Origin: a virus
Lineage: Duplodnaviria; Heunggongvirae; Uroviricota; Caudoviricetes
Direction: 5' to 3' (one strand)
IMG/VR virus record: IMGVR_UViG_2609459840_000006
DNA: 8,504 bases
Shown here: piece by piece, positions 1 to 8,504 of the stretch
How the letters are laid out: the number at the start of each line of letters is the position of its first letter
Position numbering within the stretch: position 1 is the first letter of the stretch
The notes under the pieces: generated by a model
The model's input: only the letters and a program-made list of their open reading frames with translations
Database searches by the model: none
Told to the model about the DNA's origin: nothing
Made by a program: the position numbers and the translations under genes

Positions 1-146
1 CTTACACCGCTTCTCAACCCGGTACGCACCAGAAAATCATTGATATGGCCATGAATGGCGTTGGATGCCGGGCAACTGCCCGCATTATGGGCGTTGGCCT
101 CAACACGATTTTACGTCACTTAAAAAACTCAGGCCGCAGTCGGTAA
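1..146 (+). CDS. insA: IS1 InsA, C-terminal part (5'-partial; frame starts at nt 3)
   Basis: Frame 3 reads [47 protein letters not shown] then TAA at 144-146, matching the InsA C-terminus as I recall it. Confidence 0.85.
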
Positions 147-568
147 CCTCGCGCATACAGCCGGGCAGTGACGTCATCGTCTGCGCGGAAATGGACGAAC
201 AGTGGGGCTATGTCGGGGCTAAATCGCGCCAGCGCTGGCTGTTTTACGCGTATGACAGTCTCCGGAAGACGGTTGTTGCGCACGTATTCGGTGAACGCAC
301 TATGGCGACGCTGGGGCGTCTTATGAGCCTGCTGTCACCCTTTGACGTGGTGATATGGATGACGGATGGCTGGCCGCTGTATGAATTCCGCCTGAAGGGA
401 AAGCTGCACGTAATCAGCAAGCGATATACGCAGCGAATTGAGCGGCATAACCTGAATCTGAGGCAGCACCTGGCACGGCTGGGACGGAAGTCGCTGTCGT
501 TCTCAAAATCGGTGGAGCTGCATGACAAAGTCATCGGGCATTATCTGAACATAAAACACTATCAATAA
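65..568 (+). CDS. insB: IS1 InsB frame; in vivo expressed as InsAB' transposase by -1 frameshift at the A6C motif (122-128)
   Basis: 167-aa ORF in the -1 frame relative to insA. The slippery run ttaaaaaac at 120-128 sits in the insA/insB overlap, and the stop at 566-568 lies inside the right IR. Confidence 0.85.
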
Positions 569-583
569 GTTGGAGTCATTACC
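561..583. repeat. IS1 right terminal inverted repeat (23 bp)
   Basis: atcaataagttggagtcattacc is the reverse complement of the canonical IS1 end ggtaatgactccaacttattgat. Confidence 0.75.
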
Positions 584-589
584 AAAGTT

Positions 590-625
590 ATTAAAAATGG
601 GGCGTTGAAACGCCCCCAAAAATAA
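590..625 (-). terminator. Rho-independent terminator, probably for the porin transcript
   Basis: GC stem ggggcg/cgcccc (599-604 / 611-616) with loop ttgaaa; on the minus strand it is followed by a U-run (atttttaa). It lies 14 bp from the IS1 end. Confidence 0.5.
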
Positions 626-654
626 AGGGTAATATATAACAGAAGGTTTGTATA

Positions 655-740
655 GTTAGAAGCAAGGTTGTGCTTCTAAAGGAAGTGGCTTGAGGGAGCC
701 ACTTATATGTTGGGGAGGCAAAGCCTCCCACAACATATCT
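655..740. other. Three consecutive stem-loops in the porin 3' region
   Basis: agaagca-aggttg-tgcttct (659-678); gtggct-tgaggg-agccac (685-702); and a long hairpin atatgttggggaggc-aaa-gcctcccacaacatat (705-738, about 15 bp stem with one bulge), followed on the plus strand by cttttag. Confidence 0.4.
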
Positions 741-753
741 TTTAGTAATCAAA

Positions 754-1836
754 TTAGAACTGGTAAACCATACCTACAGCAACGATATCATCGGTAGCAA
801 CGCCAGATGCTTTCGTGAAATCGCTCTTATCAATCAGGTTGATTTTGTAGTCAACAAAAGTGGACATATTTTTGTTGAAGTAATAGGTTGCACCTACATC
901 AACATATTCAACCAGGTCCTGATCACCCCAAACACCCAAGTCTTTTCCTTTAGAATGCAGGTAAGCAACGGATGGACGCAGGCCGAAGTCGAACTGATAT
1001 TGTGCAACAGCTTCGAAGTTTTGTGCTTTGTTGGCAATATGGTTATTACCAAAAACAGTCATGTTCTGGGTTTCAGAATAGGTGGTGGCCAGATAGATGT
1101 TGTTCGCATCATATTTCAGACCAGCTGCCCATACTTCAGCATTTTGACCAGAAGCATTCAGACCGTTGTTACCGTAGATAACCTGATTATTAGTGCGATC
1201 AGATTTAGCATAGGTTGCACCCACGCCGAATCCTTCATACTCATAAGTAGTTGAGAAACCGAAACCATCGCCATTAGCTTCAGTTACTTCATTTCGGTCA
1301 TTTTTGCCCTGATACTGAGCTGCAAAGTTCAGGCCATCAACCAGACCAAAGAAGTCGTTGTTACGATAAGTTGCAACACCTGTGGTGCGACCAGTCATGA
1401 ATACATCTGTTTGGGTCCAGGTATCGCCACCGAATTCTGGCAGAACGTCAGTCCACGCACCGATGTCGTATGCTACACCGTAGTTACGGCCGTAATCGAT
1501 TGAGCCGTAGTCACCGAATTTCAGGCCTGCAAATGCAAGACGGGTTTTGTCTTTGGAGGAACCTTGAGATTCAGCGCGGTTGCCTTTGAATTCATATTCC
1601 CACTGACCGAAACCAGTCAGTTGATCGTTGATTTGGGTTTCACCTTTGAAGCCAAGACGGGCATAAGTAGTATCACCATCATCTGCATCATTAGAGGAGA
1701 AGTAGTGCTTAGCATTAACTTTCCCGTACAGATCCAGCTTGTTACTGTCTTTATTATAAATTTCAGCTGCCTGAGCAGACATCGCCATCAGTACTGATGC
1801 AGCTACAGCAGAAATTGCCACTGTTAATTTTTTCAT
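754..1836 (-). CDS. nmpC: Outer-membrane general porin, NmpC / phage Lc type (OmpC/OmpF/PhoE family), 360 aa
   Basis: N-terminal signal peptide [23 protein letters not shown]|AEIYNK, porin motifs throughout and the C-terminal aromatic ..VGMVYQF. The sequence matches my memory of NmpC/Lc. ATG at 1834-1836 on the minus strand. Confidence 0.9.
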
Positions 1837-2165
1837 CGTGAGCCCTTTTTTTTGAACTATTATTAAAAAATGATGTCACTGCGCGATAAATATTCATCTA
1901 ATCAATGTGATTATTTCAAGATGTAAGTTTTAGTTTCTCATTTAATTTGTGAAGTAGATCTCTATTTTTATCTGAACTTTTTCTATCGAAACCTATTTAT
2001 GGCTCTTATTTGAACAAAAATAAACCTATTAGCTAATTTATATTAATGGCTGTTATTTATGGGGGTTCTATAATTCGGCAGTTTAATTTAAATCAACTAA
2101 AAATAACGTCTGAAATTATTTATTGGTTATTTGTTGAGGTTTTCTTATGTATTTGTGGTGGAGTT

Positions 2166-2194
2166 TTGAACACTCGGTAGCATTCTCATAAATA
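2166..2194 (+). promoter_or_regulatory. Candidate sigma70 late promoter (pR'-like) upstream of the lysis cassette
   Basis: TTGAAC (2166-2171), 17-bp spacer, TAAATA (2189-2194); resembles lambda pR' (TTGACT-17-TAAATT) as I recall it. A weak hairpin plus T-runs at about 2259-2300 could be a tR'-like terminator. Unverified. Confidence 0.25.
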
Positions 2195-2424
2195 TCATTC
2201 AGCGGTTTACGTACGTAAAAAATTGGTTATGCTGTTAAGAGTGGTTACTTCGTCACACAGCTTAAACCCGCCGTCGAGCTGGTTTTTCCATTTTTTGAGT
2301 CTCGATATTAGCTGATAACTCAATACCTGAGTTATTCACTGACTCCGAGTCTGTTACGTTTCTGCTTTTTTGCGATACGTTGTATTCCCTCAATTTACAC
2401 CCGCTTTGTCTGCGAGGTGGGGTT

Positions 2425-2640
2425 ATGAAATCCATGGATAAGTTAACAACGGGTGTCGCCTATGGCACCTCAGCAGGTAGTGCCGGTTACTGGTTTTTAC
2501 AGCTGCTCGATAAAGTCACGCCCTCACAGTGGGCAGCAATAGGTGTGCTGGGTAGCCTGGTATTTGGCCTGCTGACGTACCTGACAAACCTTTATTTCAA
2601 GATTAAAGAAGATAAGCGCAAGGCTGCGAGAGGTGAATAA
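2425..2640 (+). CDS. S: Class II holin (pinholin), phage 21 S-type, 71 aa with dual-start motif
   Basis: [28 protein letters not shown].. with Met1-Lys2-Ser3-Met4 dual start and two TMDs, close to S21 from memory. Strong SD gaggtgg upstream of the ATG at 2425. The track's start at 2380 is a TTG extension and was rejected. Confidence 0.88.
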
Positions 2641-3137
2641 TGCCTCCATCATTACGAAAAGCCGTTGCTGCTGCTATTGGTGGCGGAGCAATTGCTATAG
2701 CATCAGTGTTAATCACTGGCCCAAGTGGTAACGATGGTCTGGAAGGTGTCAGCTACATACCATACAAAGATATTGTTGGTGTATGGACTGTATGTCACGG
2801 GCATACAGGAAAAGACATCATGCTCGGTAAAACGTATACCAAAGCAGAATGCAAAGCCCTCCTGAATAAAGACCTTGCCACGGTCGCCAGACAAATTAAC
2901 CCGTACATAAAAGTTGATATACCGGAAACAACGCGCGGCGCTCTTTACTTGTTCGTTTACAACGTGGGCGCTGGCAATTTCAGAACATCGACGCTTCTTC
3001 GCAAAATAAACCAGGGCGATATCAAAGGCGCATGTGATCAGCTACGTCGCTGGACATATGCTGGCGGTAAGCAATGGAAAGGTCTCATGACTCGTCGTGA
3101 GATTGAGCGTGAAATCTGTTTGTGGGGTCAGCAATGA
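2640..3137 (+). CDS. R: SAR endolysin (phage 21 R-type lysozyme), 165 aa
   Basis: N-terminal Gly/Ala-rich signal-anchor-release segment ([20 protein letters not shown]) and catalytic residues at E35, D44, T50 as in R21. The ATG overlaps the holin stop (TAATG). Confidence 0.9.
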
Positions 3138-3601
3138 ACAGAGTAACCGCGATTATCTCCGCTCTGGTTATCTGCATCATCGTCTGCCTGTCATGGGCTG
3201 TTAATCATTACCGTGATAATGCAATCGCCTACAAAGAACAGCGCGATAACAAGGCCAGTGAACTGGAGAAGGCGAACGCCACCATTACTGACATGCAGCA
3301 GCGCCAGCGTGATGCTGATGCACTCGATGATAAATACACGAAGGAGTTAGCTGATGCGAAAGCTGAAAATGATGCTCTTCGGCGCAAGCTTGATAATGGT
3401 GGTCGGGTGCTCGTCAAAGGAAAATGCCCTGTGCCATCCTCAGCCGAAACCTCCAGCGCCTCCGGCATGGGCAATGATGCCACCGTCGAACTCTCTCCAG
3501 TTGCTGGACGAAACGTTCTCGGTATCCGGGACGGAATTATCCGCGACCAAACAGCACTGAGAACGCTTCAGGAATACATCAGGACGCAATGCCTTCGATG
3601 A
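3134..3601 (+). CDS. Rz: Rz i-spanin (inner-membrane spanin subunit), 155 aa
   Basis: [30 protein letters not shown].. is near-identical to the lambda Rz N-terminus, with one TMD and a coiled-coil periplasmic domain. The ATG at 3134 overlaps the R stop (ATGA); the track start at 3122 is GTG. Confidence 0.88.
3354..3560 (+). CDS. Rz1: Rz1 o-spanin lipoprotein, embedded in the +1 frame of Rz, 68 aa
   Basis: [19 protein letters not shown].. has a signal peptide with lipobox (VVGC) and a Pro-rich mature part ([16 protein letters not shown]). Strong SD aaggag 7 nt upstream of the ATG. Lies entirely inside Rz. Confidence 0.8.
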
Positions 3602-3775
3602 TAGCGATAATTTTACTCATCATCCTTCACATCTGGCTCTGTAGACAGGGTGGTGCTCACTTCTGGAGTGAATCCAGATTAAACATCTCATTGCTGATGC
3701 TTGATATTGAGCATTTTGCGCGCGGTAAGGGGCTGCGTTGAGATAAGAGCCAGTCATTACAAATACCAGGATTTA

Positions 3776-3801
3776 GCCTCGCATTCGCGGGGCTTTTTAT
3801 T
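3776..3801 (+). terminator. Rho-independent terminator downstream of the lysis cassette
   Basis: gcctcgc-attc-gcggggc (7-bp stem with one G.U pair) followed by tttttatt. Confidence 0.5.
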
Positions 3802-3807
3802 GCCATT

Positions 3808-3840
3808 ACAAAAGCCACTTCCTACAGAGTGGCTTTGATA
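3808..3840 (-). terminator. Rho-independent terminator for the leftward accessory operon
   Basis: aaagccact-tcctacag-agtggcttt; on the minus strand the 3' arm runs into cttttg. Confidence 0.45.
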
Positions 3841-3882
3841 ATGGCTTATACCCTACACGGGATAACTTAACTGATATCCCTT

Positions 3883-4047
3883 TTAAAGGATAAAGGTATT
3901 CAAGCCTGACACATCATGCGCTGTATCGTCGCCGTATTCCCGTATTAACAGAGACCGTAGCCCGACGGGGAACTCCTTCTGCGCGAGTGTGTGGGAATAA
4001 TCAAAAACGATGCACACCGGGGTTACCGGGTACACATATTTCATCAT
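3883..4047 (-). CDS. Hypothetical small protein, 54 aa (absent from the ORF track, apparently because of a length cutoff)
   Basis: Hand translation: MMKYVYPVTPVCIVFDYSHTLAQKEFPVGLRSLLIREYGDDTAHDVSGLNTFIL*. It lies 45 bp downstream of the ybcV-like stop and just upstream of the minus-strand terminator. The SD is weak. Confidence 0.3.
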   Translation of the reverse strand: MMKYVYPVTPVCIVFDYSHTLAQKEFPVGLRSLLIREYGDDTAHDVSGLNTFIL

Positions 4048-4092
4048 GCCAGCGAGTCCGGTTCTGGCACGGAAGAAACCGGACGTTATGAT

Positions 4093-4503
4093 TTAGTGCG
4101 GAAATATTTGTGTAGTGTTCTGAATGTTCTCAGTAAAGAGTAATGAATTATCAAAGGTATAGTAATACCTTTTGTTTTCGTGGATATTTGTAATCCATCT
4201 GAAAACCCCTGCTGTAGCAAGATTTTTCCTGTATTCGTAAAATGATAACTCTCCTGATTTGAATCCTTTTAAGGTGGCTTCTATAAGGCATTTATTTTTT
4301 GAAAATCTTACATTTACAACCTTACCCTGTCCTTTTATTAAAACCGTATTATCGTTTTCAAGAACAAGATGAATATTCTCTGTGGCTAAATAGTAAATGT
4401 AATGTGAGACATTGTGACGTTTTAGTTCAGAATAAAACCAGTGATAGTTTAAATTATTTCGCACTTTATCGAATATTTGTTTAAAAATGGCAACCTGAGC
4501 CAT
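4093..4503 (-). CDS. ybcV: DUF1398 / YbcV-like prophage protein, 136 aa from the second ATG
   Basis: [80 protein letters not shown] resembles E. coli DLP12 YbcV as I remember it (unverified). The ATG at 4503 has SD ggaagg; the upstream ATG at 4518 has none. Markedly AT-rich. Confidence 0.75.
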
Positions 4504-4559
4504 TGTAGTACCTTCCATGTGATATGAGGGGTGTAGTCTGCACGATTATCTAAATTGCT

Positions 4560-4793
4560 TCAATCTGGTCTGATCTGTTTTCTGAGCAATTCAGTAATGT
4601 CACTCTTTTCTTTGTTTGCTTCAGGAGAAACTCTTTTTTCTGAGCACAGTCTCCGGCGGCAGGCTTCAATGACCCAGGCTGAGAAATTCCCGGACCCTTT
4701 TTGATCAAGAGCGATGTTAATTTGTTCAATCATTTGGTTAGGAAAGCGGATGTTGCGGGTTGTTGTTCTGCGGGTTCTGTTCTTCGTTGACAT
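4560..4793 (-). CDS. Ribbon-helix-helix DNA-binding protein, DUF3950 / YlcI-like, 77 aa
   Basis: Basic N-terminal arm (KNRTRRTTTR), then a beta-strand (NIRFP), helix (NQMIEQINIALDQ), KGSGN turn and helix (FSAWVIEACRRRL): the Arc/MetJ/CopG RHH pattern. Resembles DLP12 YlcI from memory. ATG at 4793. Confidence 0.7.
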   Translation of the reverse strand: MSTKNRTRRTTTRNIRFPNQMIEQINIALDQKGSGNFSAWVIEACRRRLCSEKRVSPEANKEKSDITELLRKQIRPD

Positions 4794-4992
4794 GAGGTTG
4801 TCCCGTATTCAGTGTCGCTGATTTGTATTGTCTGAAGTTGTTTTTACGTTAAGTTGATGCAGATCAATTAATACGATACCTGCGTCATAATTGATTATTT
4901 GACGTGGTTTGATGGCGTAGATGCACGTTGTGACATGCAGATGATAATTATTATCATTTTGCGGGTCCTTTCCGGCGATCCGACAGGTTACG

Positions 4993-5004
4993 GGGCGGCG
5001 ACCT
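4993..5004. other. cosN 12-nt cohesive-end sequence (gggcggcgacct)
   Basis: Exact match to the lambda cohesive end GGGCGGCGACCT, preceded by ..aggttacg, the lambda right end. Confidence 0.8.
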
Positions 5005-5101
5005 CGCGGGTTTTCGCTATTTATGAAAATTTTCCGGTTTAAGGTGTTTCCGTTCTTCTTCGTCGTAACTTAATGTTTTTATTTAAAATACCCCCTGAAA
5101 A

Positions 5102-5156
5102 GAAAGGAAACGACAGGTGCTGAAAGCGAGCTTTTTGGCCTCTGTCGTTTCCTTTC
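5102..5156. repeat. cosB R-element inverted repeat (terminase small-subunit binding sites R2/R1)
   Basis: Perfect 15-bp inverted repeat gaaaggaaacgacag (5102-5116) / ctgtcgtttcctttc (5142-5156), separated by 25 bp; a related tttccgttcttcttcg lies at about 5047-5062 (R3-like). Confidence 0.6.
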
Positions 5157-5181
5157 TCTGTTTTTGTCCGTGGAATGAACA

Positions 5182-5727
5182 ATGGAAGTCAACAAAAAGC
5201 AGCTGGCTGACATTTTCGGTGCGAGTATCCGTACCATTCAGAACTGGCAGGAACAGGGAATGCCCGTTCTGCGAGGCGGTGGCAAGGGTAATGAGGTGCT
5301 TTATGACTCTGCCGCCGTCATAAAATGGTATGCCAAAAGGGATGCTGAAATTGAGAACGAAAAGCTGCGCCGGGAGGTTGAAGAACTGCGGCAGGCCAGC
5401 GAGGCAGATCTCCAGCCAGGGACTATTGAGTACGAACGCCATCGACTTACGCGTGCGCAGGCCGACGCACAGGAACTGAAGAATGCCAGAGACTCCGCTG
5501 AAGTGGTGGAAACCGCATTCTGTACTTTCGTGTTGTCGCGGATCGCAGGTGAAATTGCCAGTATTCTCGACGGGATCCCCCTGTCGGTGCAGCGGCGTTT
5601 TCCGGAACTGGAAAACCGACATGTTGATTTCCTGAAACGGGATATCATCAAAGCCATGAACAAAGCAGCCGCGCTGGATGAACTGATACCGGGGTTGCTG
5701 AGTGAATATATCGAACAGTCAGGTTAA
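5182..5727 (+). CDS. nu1: Terminase small subunit Nu1, 181 aa
   Basis: MEVNKKQLADIFGASIRTIQNWQEQGMPVLRGGGKGNEVLYDSAAVIKWY.. is essentially identical to lambda gpNu1 from memory, with a winged-HTH N-terminus. The 3' end overlaps the A start as in lambda. Confidence 0.95.
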   Translation: MEVNKKQLADIFGASIRTIQNWQEQGMPVLRGGGKGNEVLYDSAAVIKWYAKRDAEIENEKLRREVEELRQASEADLQPGTIEYERHRLTRAQADAQELKNARDSAEVVETAFCTFVLSRIAGEIASILDGIPLSVQRRFPELENRHVDFLKRDIIKAMNKAAALDELIPGLLSEYIEQSG

Positions 5728-7168
5728 CAGGCTGCGGCATTTTGTCCGCGCCGGGCTTCGCTCACTGTTCAGGCCGGAGCCACAGACCGCCGTTGAATGG
5801 GCGGATGCTAATTACTATCTCCCGAAAGAATCCGCATACCAGGAAGGGCGCTGGGAAACACTGCCCTTTCAGCGGGCCATCATGAATGCGATGGGCAGCG
5901 ACTACATCCGCGAGGTGAATGTGGTGAAGTCTGCCCGTGTTGGTTATTCCAAAATGCTGTTGGGTGTTTATGCCTACTTCATAGAGCATAAGCAGCGCAA
6001 CACACTTATCTGGTTGCCGACGGATGGTGATGCCGAGAACTTTATGAAAACCCACGTTGAGCCGACCATCCGCGATATTCCGTTGCTGCTGGCGCTGGCT
6101 CCGTGGTATGGCAAAAAGCACCGGGATAACACGCTCACCATGAAGCGTTTTTCCAATGGTCGTGGCTTCTGGTGCCTGGGCGGTAAAGCGGCAAAAAACT
6201 ACCGTGAAAAGTCGGTGGATGTGGCGGGGTATGATGAACTTGCTGCCTTTGATGAGGATATTGAACAGGAAGGCTCTCCGACGTTCCTTGGCGACAAACG
6301 TATTGAAGGCTCGGTCTGGCCAAAGTCCATCCGTGGCTCCACCCCCAAAGTGAGAGGTACCTGCCAGATTGAGCGTGCAGCCAGTGAATCCCCGCATTTT
6401 ATGCGTTTTCATGTTGCCTGTCCGCACTGCGGGGAGGAGCAGTACCTTAAATTTGGCGATAAAGAGACGTCGTTTGGCCTCAAATGGACGCCGGATGATC
6501 CCTCCAGCGTGTTTTATCTCTGCGAACATAATGCCTGCGTCATCCGCCAGCAGGAACTGGACTTCACTGATGCCCGTTATATCTGCGAAAAGACCGGGAT
6601 CTGGACCCGTGATGGCATTCTCTGGTTTTCGTCATCCGGTGAAGAGATTGAGCCGCCGGACAGCGTGACCTTTCACATCTGGACGGCGTACAGCCCGTTC
6701 ACCACCTGGGTGCAGATTGTCAAAGACTGGATGAAAACGAAAGGGGATACGGGAAAACGTAAAACCTTCGTAAACACCACGCTCGGTGAGACGTGGGAGG
6801 CGAAAATTGGCGAACGTCCGGATGCTGAAGTGATGGCAGAGCGGAAAGAGCATTATTCAGCGCCCGTTCCTGACCGTGTGGCTTACCTGACCGCCGGTAT
6901 CGACTCCCAGCTGGATCGCTACGAAATGCGCGTATGGGGATGGGGGCCGGGTGAGGAAAGCTGGCTGATTGACCGGCAGATTATTATGGGCCGCCACGAC
7001 GATGAACAGACGCTGCTGCGTGTGGATGAGGCCATCAATAAAACCTATACCCGCCGGAATGGTGCAGAAATGTCGGTATCCCGTATCTGCTGGGATACTG
7101 GCGGGATTGATCCGACCATTGTGTATGAACGCTCGAAAAAACATGGGCTGTTCCGGGTGATCCCATAA
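5702..7168 (+). pseudogene. A: Terminase large subunit A, truncated after codon 488 by IS186
   Basis: GTG start (as in lambda); MNISNSQVNRLRHFVRAGLRSLF... is near-identical to lambda gpA through ..KKHGLFRVIP, then TAA at 7166-7168 inside the IS186 terminal repeat. Lambda gpA is 641 aa, so about 150 C-terminal residues are missing from this reading frame. Confidence 0.9.
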
Positions 7169-7186
7169 GCGCTAACTTAAGGGTTG
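7164..7186. repeat. IS186 terminal inverted repeat (gene A-proximal end)
   Basis: cataagcgctaacttaagggttg; its reverse complement is found at 8480-8502. Confidence 0.75.
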
Positions 7187-7334
7187 AACCATCTGAAGAA
7201 TGCGACGCCTCGGTGCCTCGTTAAGACGATGCCTCGCGTTCTTCAATTGCGTTTTGTAGGCTGTCAGGGATACTGTCCCACGAATGGCCACCTGTAAGCT
7301 CCAGATGACCATTTTTGTTATTCTCCACAACGAG

Positions 7335-8447
7335 TTAGTTCTTCTTTTCGGATCCGGCACTTCTGGGGGGGAAATCCAGCGATGGCTGGATTATGTCGTC
7401 AATTAAAAATGCGGCGAGTAGATTAGCAAATATCCACGCTTTCGCGAGTTCAGGTTCCTTTGCACGCAAAGCATCCAGGTGCAGCAAACTTTTGAGCCGC
7501 TTAAAAGCCAGTTCAATTTGCCATCGCAGACGGTAACAATCAGCCACTTGCTCTGCTGAATATTCATCTTCCGGTAATGATGTTAGCAATAGCACATGGC
7601 CCGCTGCTTCCAGCGTTTCCGCCTGAACTACTCGTCCTTTTCGACGATTCTCGCTGAGCAGTCGGGTTTTACTGATTAATGCTTTTTCGGGAGGAAGTGA
7701 TACGGCAATGAGACGTGCCGGAAAGGGAGCTCCGGCTTTTTTATTACCTGAATTGCCTATCATTACAGTGGTTTCACCGTTCTTACCGCAATCCAGCCCG
7801 CGCAGAAAACCCATCATGTCAAAGCGCATTCCTTCTGCAGTTAACCAGCGCAATCCTCGCCAGTGAACCCGGACGATATAATCAGCTTCTCCAAAAGCAA
7901 GTGAGCGGATACATTCGGGACGCGAACCGAATCCCCGGTCAGCAATGCGTATCTCGTCTGCCGTTTGCGCAAATCGGTCCAGCCGTTCAGCGTCTCTGCT
8001 GTCGGTTAGCTCAAAATCAGTGAACTGACAGGTATGAGGATCATATCCCATATGTAGTCGCCATTCAGCGCTGCCGCCCCCGGGCGCACTGATTGCTGTT
8101 CCATCGACAAGACGCAATCTCTTTCCGCTTGTACAACCCGTAACTGCGGCGCGTACAGCAAGTGTTTGTGCGGCAAGTATGCCAAACCAGTCGGCGGCAT
8201 TCCGCAGCCGCTTCAGGAGAGCCACGTCAGATAATGTTGCAACGTCATGGAGCTGAGCCCATGCAGTGACTTCACGTAATGACATCCCCCCGGGGCCGTA
8301 AGCCAGCCCCAGACGTAGCAGAGTTGCAGCATCACGAATTTCGCGGCGGCGGGTTAGAGCCCCGGCATTACGTGCCGAAGTATCCAGTTCTTCGGGCTTA
8401 CCAATATGGGCCAGAATTGCTGACCAGTTATCGTGAGAGTAATTCAT
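7335..8447 (-). CDS. IS186 transposase (IS4-family DDE transposase), 370 aa
   Basis: MNYSHDNWSAILAHIGKPEELDTSARNAGALTRRREIRD.. matches the IS186 transposase as I recall it. ATG at 8447; the track start at 8453 is GTG. Confidence 0.9.
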   Translation of the reverse strand: MNYSHDNWSAILAHIGKPEELDTSARNAGALTRRREIRDAATLLRLGLAYGPGGMSLREVTAWAQLHDVATLSDVALLKRLRNAADWFGILAAQTLAVRAAVTGCTSGKRLRLVDGTAISAPGGGSAEWRLHMGYDPHTCQFTDFELTDSRDAERLDRFAQTADEIRIADRGFGSRPECIRSLAFGEADYIVRVHWRGLRWLTAEGMRFDMMGFLRGLDCGKNGETTVMIGNSGNKKAGAPFPARLIAVSLPPEKALISKTRLLSENRRKGRVVQAETLEAAGHVLLLTSLPEDEYSAEQVADCYRLRWQIELAFKRLKSLLHLDALRAKEPELAKAWIFANLLAAFLIDDIIQPSLDFPPRSAGSEKKN

Positions 8448-8479
8448 CGGCACGTTAAATCATATCAGGCGTAATACCA

Positions 8480-8502
8480 CAACCCTTAAGTTAGCGCTTA
8501 TG
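8480..8502. repeat. IS186 terminal inverted repeat (transposase-proximal end)
   Basis: caacccttaagttagcgcttatg is the reverse complement of 7164-7186. Confidence 0.75.
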
Positions 8503-8504
8503 GG

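Follow-up and report, generated by a model that had tools for sequence, protein, structure and literature searches.

An IS1 end stands at the left edge of this prophage DNA, where the Q gene is expected beside the porin gene, and the question is whether the element has interrupted Q, replaced it or come to lie beside it, and what follows for the late genes. The window, i.e. the whole 8,504-bp stretch analyzed here, is an entire draft contig (JNMU01000082.1, assembly GCA_000700625.1) whose first base corresponds to position 186 of IS1. Because the contig starts inside IS1, the left flank in its own genome is unreadable, and as positions 1 and 8504 are both assembly breaks within repeated insertion sequences, neither element can be traced outward. 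A contig ending within an insertion sequence cannot alone reveal what that sequence interrupted. The junction was examined in relatives among complete Escherichia coli genomes.

The IS1 end and the expected position of Q

Positions 1 to 583 (plus strand) form the right portion, 583 bp, of a 768-bp IS1A-like element and correspond to IS1 positions 186 to 768. The open reading frame at 65-568 matched the Pfam profile DDE_Tnp_IS1 (PF03400) over 131 of 131 profile positions (E 3e-77), with the stop codon of the insB frame at 566-568, and the 3' end of insA also lies within the part present. The A6C motif TTAAAAAAC for the -1 frameshift between insA and insB was located at 120-128. The right inverted repeat ends in GGAGTCATTACC with its last base at 583, and window 561-583 is the reverse complement of the IS1 terminal repeat GGTAATGACTCCAACTTATTGAT (right end, read inward), as it is in the IS1 of E. 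coli ES1. The ES1 copy at the matching junction is a full 768-bp element, and window 1-583 is identical at 582 of 583 positions to the last 583 bp of the ES1 and EC6 copies. The earlier description of this segment as an IS1 right end with its inverted repeat running to 583 is thus borne out by the sequence, the Pfam match and the identity to ES1 and EC6. Compared with IS1A and IS1B of E. coli, the element shares the right inverted repeat, insA/insB, the A6C motif and the 582/583 identity, and differs in being limited to the right 583 bp and in one private base.

That base, the sole mismatch to the ES1 and EC6 copies, is a T for C at position 387, which changes a serine of InsB to phenylalanine (YESRLKG to YEFRLKG) and creates an EcoRI site (GAATTC, 384-389). 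It could be a genuine mutation or a sequencing error; no further contig in an index of 153 billion genes carries the 167-aa InsB variant. The ET76 copy at the shared junction lacks 1 nt relative to ES1 and EC6 close to the A-run frameshift site, which may likewise be a true frameshift change or a homopolymer sequencing error.

To the right of IS1, a 170-bp spacer (584-753) leads to the stop codon of an intact porin gene of 360 aa (754-1836, minus strand; Pfam Porin_1, E 4e-152), convergent with IS1. The gene lies between the Q position and S, on the opposite strand and with its own terminator, as is characteristic of the Lc/NmpC/OmpD type. An AT-rich region of ~590 bp follows (1837-2424), then an intact lysis cassette on the plus strand identified by Pfam and the ES1 annotation (S 2425-2640, R 2640-3137, Rz 3134-3601), DUF1398 and YlcI/YnfO genes on the minus strand (4093-4793) and a small terminase subunit gene of Nu1/nohD type (5182-5727). 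The Q open reading frame is absent from the window.

The IS1-free allele was found in E. coli PSS-13, which is 100% identical to the window over 584-7164 and has no IS1 at the junction. In PSS-13, 18 bp separate the quuD (Q) stop codon from the point to its right that matches 583/584, the junction of IS1 and prophage DNA. The viable phage ev099 shows the same Q-porin-S order at 99.6% identity, with the quuD stop likewise 18 bp left of the junction, and this order also occurs in ev243 and PhiR phages; the porin region of the window is 92% identical at the DNA level to the lc region of PA-2. The QuuD protein encoded by the intact relatives shares 78-81% identity with the Q proteins of 933W and H-19B and is distantly related to Q21 (E 8e-7). 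The earlier note had placed Q where IS1 now stands, and PSS-13 and ev099 confirm that position.

The note had also argued from DLP12-type prophages, a comparison that applies to the module and not to the site. The gene order and orientation are those of DLP12 (quuD-nmpC-essD-rrrD-rzpD) and PA-2 (lc), with the porin convergent with Q, and S, R and Rz are also of P21/DLP12 type. However, Q is missing here, and in the closest relatives att-lambda, not argU, is the integration site of the prophage, which has a lambda-type integrase and lambda-like head genes. The porin also differs from that of K-12 DLP12 in being intact, as nmpC of K-12 carries an IS5 interruption.

The junction and the missing interval in complete genomes

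A 160-bp probe over the right junction and a second probe over the left junction were used to screen 5,426 complete E. coli genomes. The uninterrupted right junction was present in three of them (ES1, ET76 and EC6), which are 99.9-100% identical to the window over 1-7164. Its presence in three complete genomes shows that the junction is no product of misassembly. All three show the layout ybhC-int'-IS1-porin on the att-lambda side, with the left end of IS1 abutting nucleotide 135 of a truncated lambda-type integrase gene. This left junction, between int nucleotides 134 and 135 and the IS1 left repeat (CTTCAGTG|GGTGATGCTGCC), was likewise confined to the same three of the 5,426 genomes. The 9-bp sequences flanking IS1 in these genomes are GCTTCAGTG and AAAGTTATT; there is no target duplication, which points to a deletion or recombination junction and not to a simple insertion.

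In the PSS-13 prophage, the two IS1 flanks are 16,407 bp apart, collinear and in the same orientation. Since this interval includes an IS1 private to PSS-13, ~15.6 kb of it is prophage DNA. Genes within it are xis, exo/bet/gam, emrE, rusA, ylcG and quuD, along with the int portion up to nucleotide 134, the repressor region, the replication genes and the nin region. Q is entirely absent from the int'-porin interval of ES1, ET76 and EC6. In these genomes the lesion is far larger than the earlier note assumed, at ~16 kb from the int 5' end to Q.

The best overall explanation, to which we give a probability of about 0.8, is that IS1 marks the scar of a ~16.4-kb IS1-associated deletion that included Q, in a lambda-like prophage integrated at att-lambda beside ybhC. 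The lost span would run from int nucleotide 134 through xis, exo/bet/gam, immunity, O/P and nin to 18 bp beyond the stop of the Q933/QuuD-type gene, leaving 15 nt before the stem of the porin terminator. An insertion sequence kept at a deletion junction without target duplication is the classical result of IS1-promoted deletion or of IS1-IS1 recombination. ES1, ET76 and EC6 match the pattern of IS1-promoted adjacent deletions, having kept IS1 at the junction without a target duplication. Either route, adjacent deletion promoted by one IS1 or recombination between a pair of direct copies, fits the ES1-type structure equally. Neither junction probe found a precursor with either single IS1 insertion among the 5,426 complete genomes.

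The genome from which the window came differs from the three carriers in an IS186/IS421-type element in terL, which is found in none of them, and in the private IS1 base. These differences set the source strain apart as its own branch, for which another left junction is conceivable. Judging from these relatives, the window's own genome nevertheless quite probably shares the ES1-type deletion structure. Of the two fates that the earlier note had proposed for Q, replacement is the one seen in ES1, ET76 and EC6, and on the strength of these relatives Q was most likely replaced here as well; mere interruption does not agree with what they carry.

A simple insertion of IS1 in the Q-porin spacer, with a 9-bp duplication and with Q and the early region intact beyond it, would leave late control unaffected because Q works in trans. 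The left flank lies outside the window, and AAAGTTATT, being AT-rich, resembles the sites that IS1 favors; such an insertion is also a plausible precursor of the ES1-type deletion. However, none of the 5,426 genomes has the right junction with Q on its left, all three carriers are deleted, and the window is 99.9-100% identical to these deletion carriers, which makes a simple insertion unlikely. The arrangement that the earlier note had named as its own refutation, an intact Q beyond IS1 with an 8-9 bp duplication, was correspondingly found in 0 of the 5,426 genomes.

Another IS1-mediated rearrangement could have kept the right junction and joined the left end elsewhere, by inversion, a larger deletion or IS1-IS1 recombination. 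Assorted left flanks of porin-adjacent IS1 are indeed seen in strains H7, FCI5, MSB1_4I and 2018-05-5CC, and in the ES1 lineage at least 40 places per genome match an IS1-containing query. The right junctions in those four strains differ, however, being 28-261 bp further left, whereas the three genomes with the identical right junction all share a single left junction. We regard this alternative as quite unlikely.

Beyond complete genomes, the IS1/porin junction gave 0 exact matches in species-representative genomes and metagenome contigs. The 316-aa open reading frame formed by the fusion of int' and IS1 was absent from the protein collection. Its 256-aa form with an internal start was rejected as a marker, being non-specific and mostly matching frameshifted int of intact prophages. 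One metagenome contig carries IS1 in int at a different junction.

With Q, the N-side functions, the repressor, the replication genes, xis and the int 5' end lost, the late genes are expected to be silent unless a compatible Q is supplied in trans. In ES1, the argU site, where DLP12 usually resides, is empty and so provides no compatible Q from that site. The proposed deletion would have removed all functions for switching on the late genes (the induction circuit and Q) or for excision (xis and the int 5' end), and would have retained the convergent porin unit, the late promoter pR', lysis, packaging and structural genes. The ES1 remnant indeed has a full set of head and tail genes, with terL intact. 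Such a deletion would account for an intact porin gene in a remnant that can no longer be induced, excised or packaged.

The porin transcript and the putative late promoter

The minus-strand sequence from 616 to 599 folds into the stem-loop GGGGCGTTTCAACGCCCC followed by ATTTTTAATA, an intrinsic terminator of the porin transcript with 7 pairs, 6 of them G-C. It is the single terminator-like site found by a consensus scan of 500-2700 and the final hairpin in the minimum-free-energy fold of the porin 3' region. The earlier placement of the porin terminator at 599-616 is supported by both scan and fold, and its distance from IS1, given before as 14 bp, is 15 nt (584-598). These 15 nt are the remnant of the Q-porin spacer and supply, on the minus strand, the T-tract and tail of the terminator (ATTTTTAATAACTTT).

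Between the porin stop codon (754-756) and the terminator, which lies 138 nt beyond it, RNA folding predicts three other stable hairpins at 657-738 (minus strand; ~657-680, 683-704 and 707-738). The fold of 760 to 584 consists of four consecutive hairpins at -58.5 kcal/mol (z = -8.9 against shuffles), in a 3' UTR of ~170 nt. A scan of the whole window, including the porin 3' UTR, gave no Rfam match at threshold. Candidate roles for this 3' UTR are an mRNA stabilizer, a bidirectional stop between the convergent Q and porin transcripts or the source of a 3'-UTR-derived small RNA. On the plus strand, CTTTT follows the 707-738 hairpin, which could affect transcripts arriving from the Q side. In MSB1_4I, changes on both arms of this hairpin produce a perfect stem.

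As the porin stem, T-tract and whole 3' UTR are identical to those of the IS1-free allele, the porin transcript is unaltered by IS1. This bears on the possibility that the role of IS1 here is chiefly regulatory, with outward transcription running antisense into the porin 3' end and modulating its expression. IS1 and the porin gene are convergent, and the 599-616 hairpin, with A's behind it on the plus strand, would be no stop to read-through from IS1. However, a consensus scan of both strands found nothing promoter-like around the junction, the terminator, T-tract and 3' UTR are those of the IS1-free allele, and three further hairpins, one followed by CTTTT, lie ahead of the coding region. Transcription of the IS1 transposase is also weak. 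A mainly regulatory effect is therefore very improbable. A candidate promoter in the Q-porin spacer (TTGAAA at 605-610 and TAATAT at 630-635) was rejected, having a 19-nt spacing and no support from the scan.

On the other side of the porin gene, a segment between its start and S (window 2205-2287) gave blastn matches at 76-90% identity to the DNA directly behind Q in many Stx phages. For phage 06-3462, the alignment spans an annotated "putative" pR' and the first hairpin downstream of it. We assign 2206-2233 (plus strand) as a homologue of pR' of 933W-type Stx phages, with -35 TTTACG (2206-2211), a 16-nt spacer and -10 TATGCT (2228-2233), on the basis of ~77% identity over ~82 nt and of that "putative" annotation in another record. 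Its hexamers score 8/12, and this weakness explains why the element was missed by the consensus scan. The conserved leader extends to ~2287, and a weak hairpin with T-runs at 2256-2296 is the putative counterpart of the first Stx-phage terminator; the consensus scan of 500-2700 found no plus-strand terminator. The first late genes downstream of the pR' homologue are S, R and Rz.

Transcription from pR' is constitutive in Stx phages and stops at tR' when Q is not acting (PMC7547250; PMC6266700). Homology to this Q933/H-19B-type Q-pR'-tR' switch, which is also the source of the StxS RNA, covers pR' and the early leader (window 2206-2287). The arrangement differs in two respects: the pR' of Stx phages overlaps the stop codon of Q, whereas here a porin cassette of 1.6 kb stands between pR' and the Q position, and the homology stops after ~82 nt, leaving the mapped 258-nt tR'/StxS part unmatched. 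The putative pR' is thus retained intact 1.6 kb to the right of IS1, without its Q, and the porin cassette is best interpreted as having been inserted between Q and pR'. This would place the late promoter of DLP12/PA-2-type modules on the S side of the porin and correct the position previously assumed. A literature search for a mapped late promoter of DLP12 or PA-2 yielded nothing usable.

Because Q functions in trans and the pR' homologue is intact on the far side of the porin, the earlier suggestion that IS1 breaks the link between Q and the late promoter is not supported. Transcripts from pR' would be expected to end at promoter-proximal terminators unless another prophage provides a compatible Q. 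We infer that pR' is active and Q-dependent here, as we do the order of events at this locus. In phage phiP27 (767-1996 and ~2029-2088 of the stretch examined), a GIY-YIG nuclease gene lies between Q and a conserved pR'-like element, indicating that the Q/pR' boundary takes inserts in other lambdoid phages. In the window, the -35 region of the pR' homologue at 2206-2219 is a perfect 14-bp palindrome, TTTACGTACGTAAA; the aligned palindrome of 06-3462, TTTACGATCGTAAA, is also perfect, with the central two bases swapped. The element is a candidate protein-binding site and might be the Q-binding element of the Q933/QuuD family.

Recurrent losses beside the porin and the terminase lesion

IS1 has bounded deletions near this porin in other strains as well. 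In MSB1_4I, at the DLP12 site, the right end of IS1 lies 28 bp further left than in the window (~-10 from the Q stop) and its left flank is a DUF2303 gene; in H7, it lies 51 bp further left (~-33 from the Q stop) with yagM on the left. The right end falls inside Q in FCI5, whose porin is the sole prophage gene left of yedK, and inside quuD in 2018-05-5CC. The FCI5 porin stands as an isolated remnant between ybcM-IS1 and yedK. In PSS-08-2, an IS1-bounded deletion ends in ninX and Q is kept. IS1-bounded losses of Q and the early region beside the porin represent at least five independent events with right ends within ~260 bp of the Q stop, the ES1 lineage being at +18. Such recurrence might reflect selection for the porin, and perhaps for the pR'-driven lysis/late cassette, with the prophage disarmed, or an IS1 hot spot in the AT-rich Q-porin spacer, but we consider this doubtful; chance in IS1-rich genomes is the alternative.

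The ES1 lineage is itself IS1-rich, with further IS1-bounded losses in sfmD-H and envY-cusC and an insertion in ybhI. The ES1 record (3,341,300-3,345,900) shows no DLP12 at argU and IS1-bounded deletions at sfmD-sfmH and envY-cusC. The IS1 in ybhI, 5 kb from the prophage, is present in ES1 and ET76 and not in EC6.

The event is of a known kind, namely ordinary erosion of a prophage by insertion sequences. As in the cryptic prophages DLP12, Rac and Qin of K-12, the early, immunity and excision genes have been lost, a host-useful insert and late genes have been kept, and there are multiple insertions (here IS1 and IS186/IS421); only the end points are distinctive.

The other late-region lesion is the insertion of the IS186/IS421-type element (7165-8504, minus strand) in the large terminase gene terL (5702-7164), which is cut at 7164/7165 with ~487-488 of 641 codons kept. 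The element was identified by Pfam DDE_Tnp_1, matches to IS421 and a 25-nt perfect inverted repeat. Its target in terL reads CCCC-ATTAAA-GGGG, and the window ends at the inverted repeat of the element. Together with the proposed deletion, this insertion would leave a locked-in cryptic remnant whose porin could still be expressed from its own promoter. The junction of terL and IS186/IS421 was found in none of the complete E. coli genomes and gave 0 exact matches in species-representative genomes. The truncated TerL protein is also encoded in a Logan assembly (SRR1186646) and in GCA_019179075.1.
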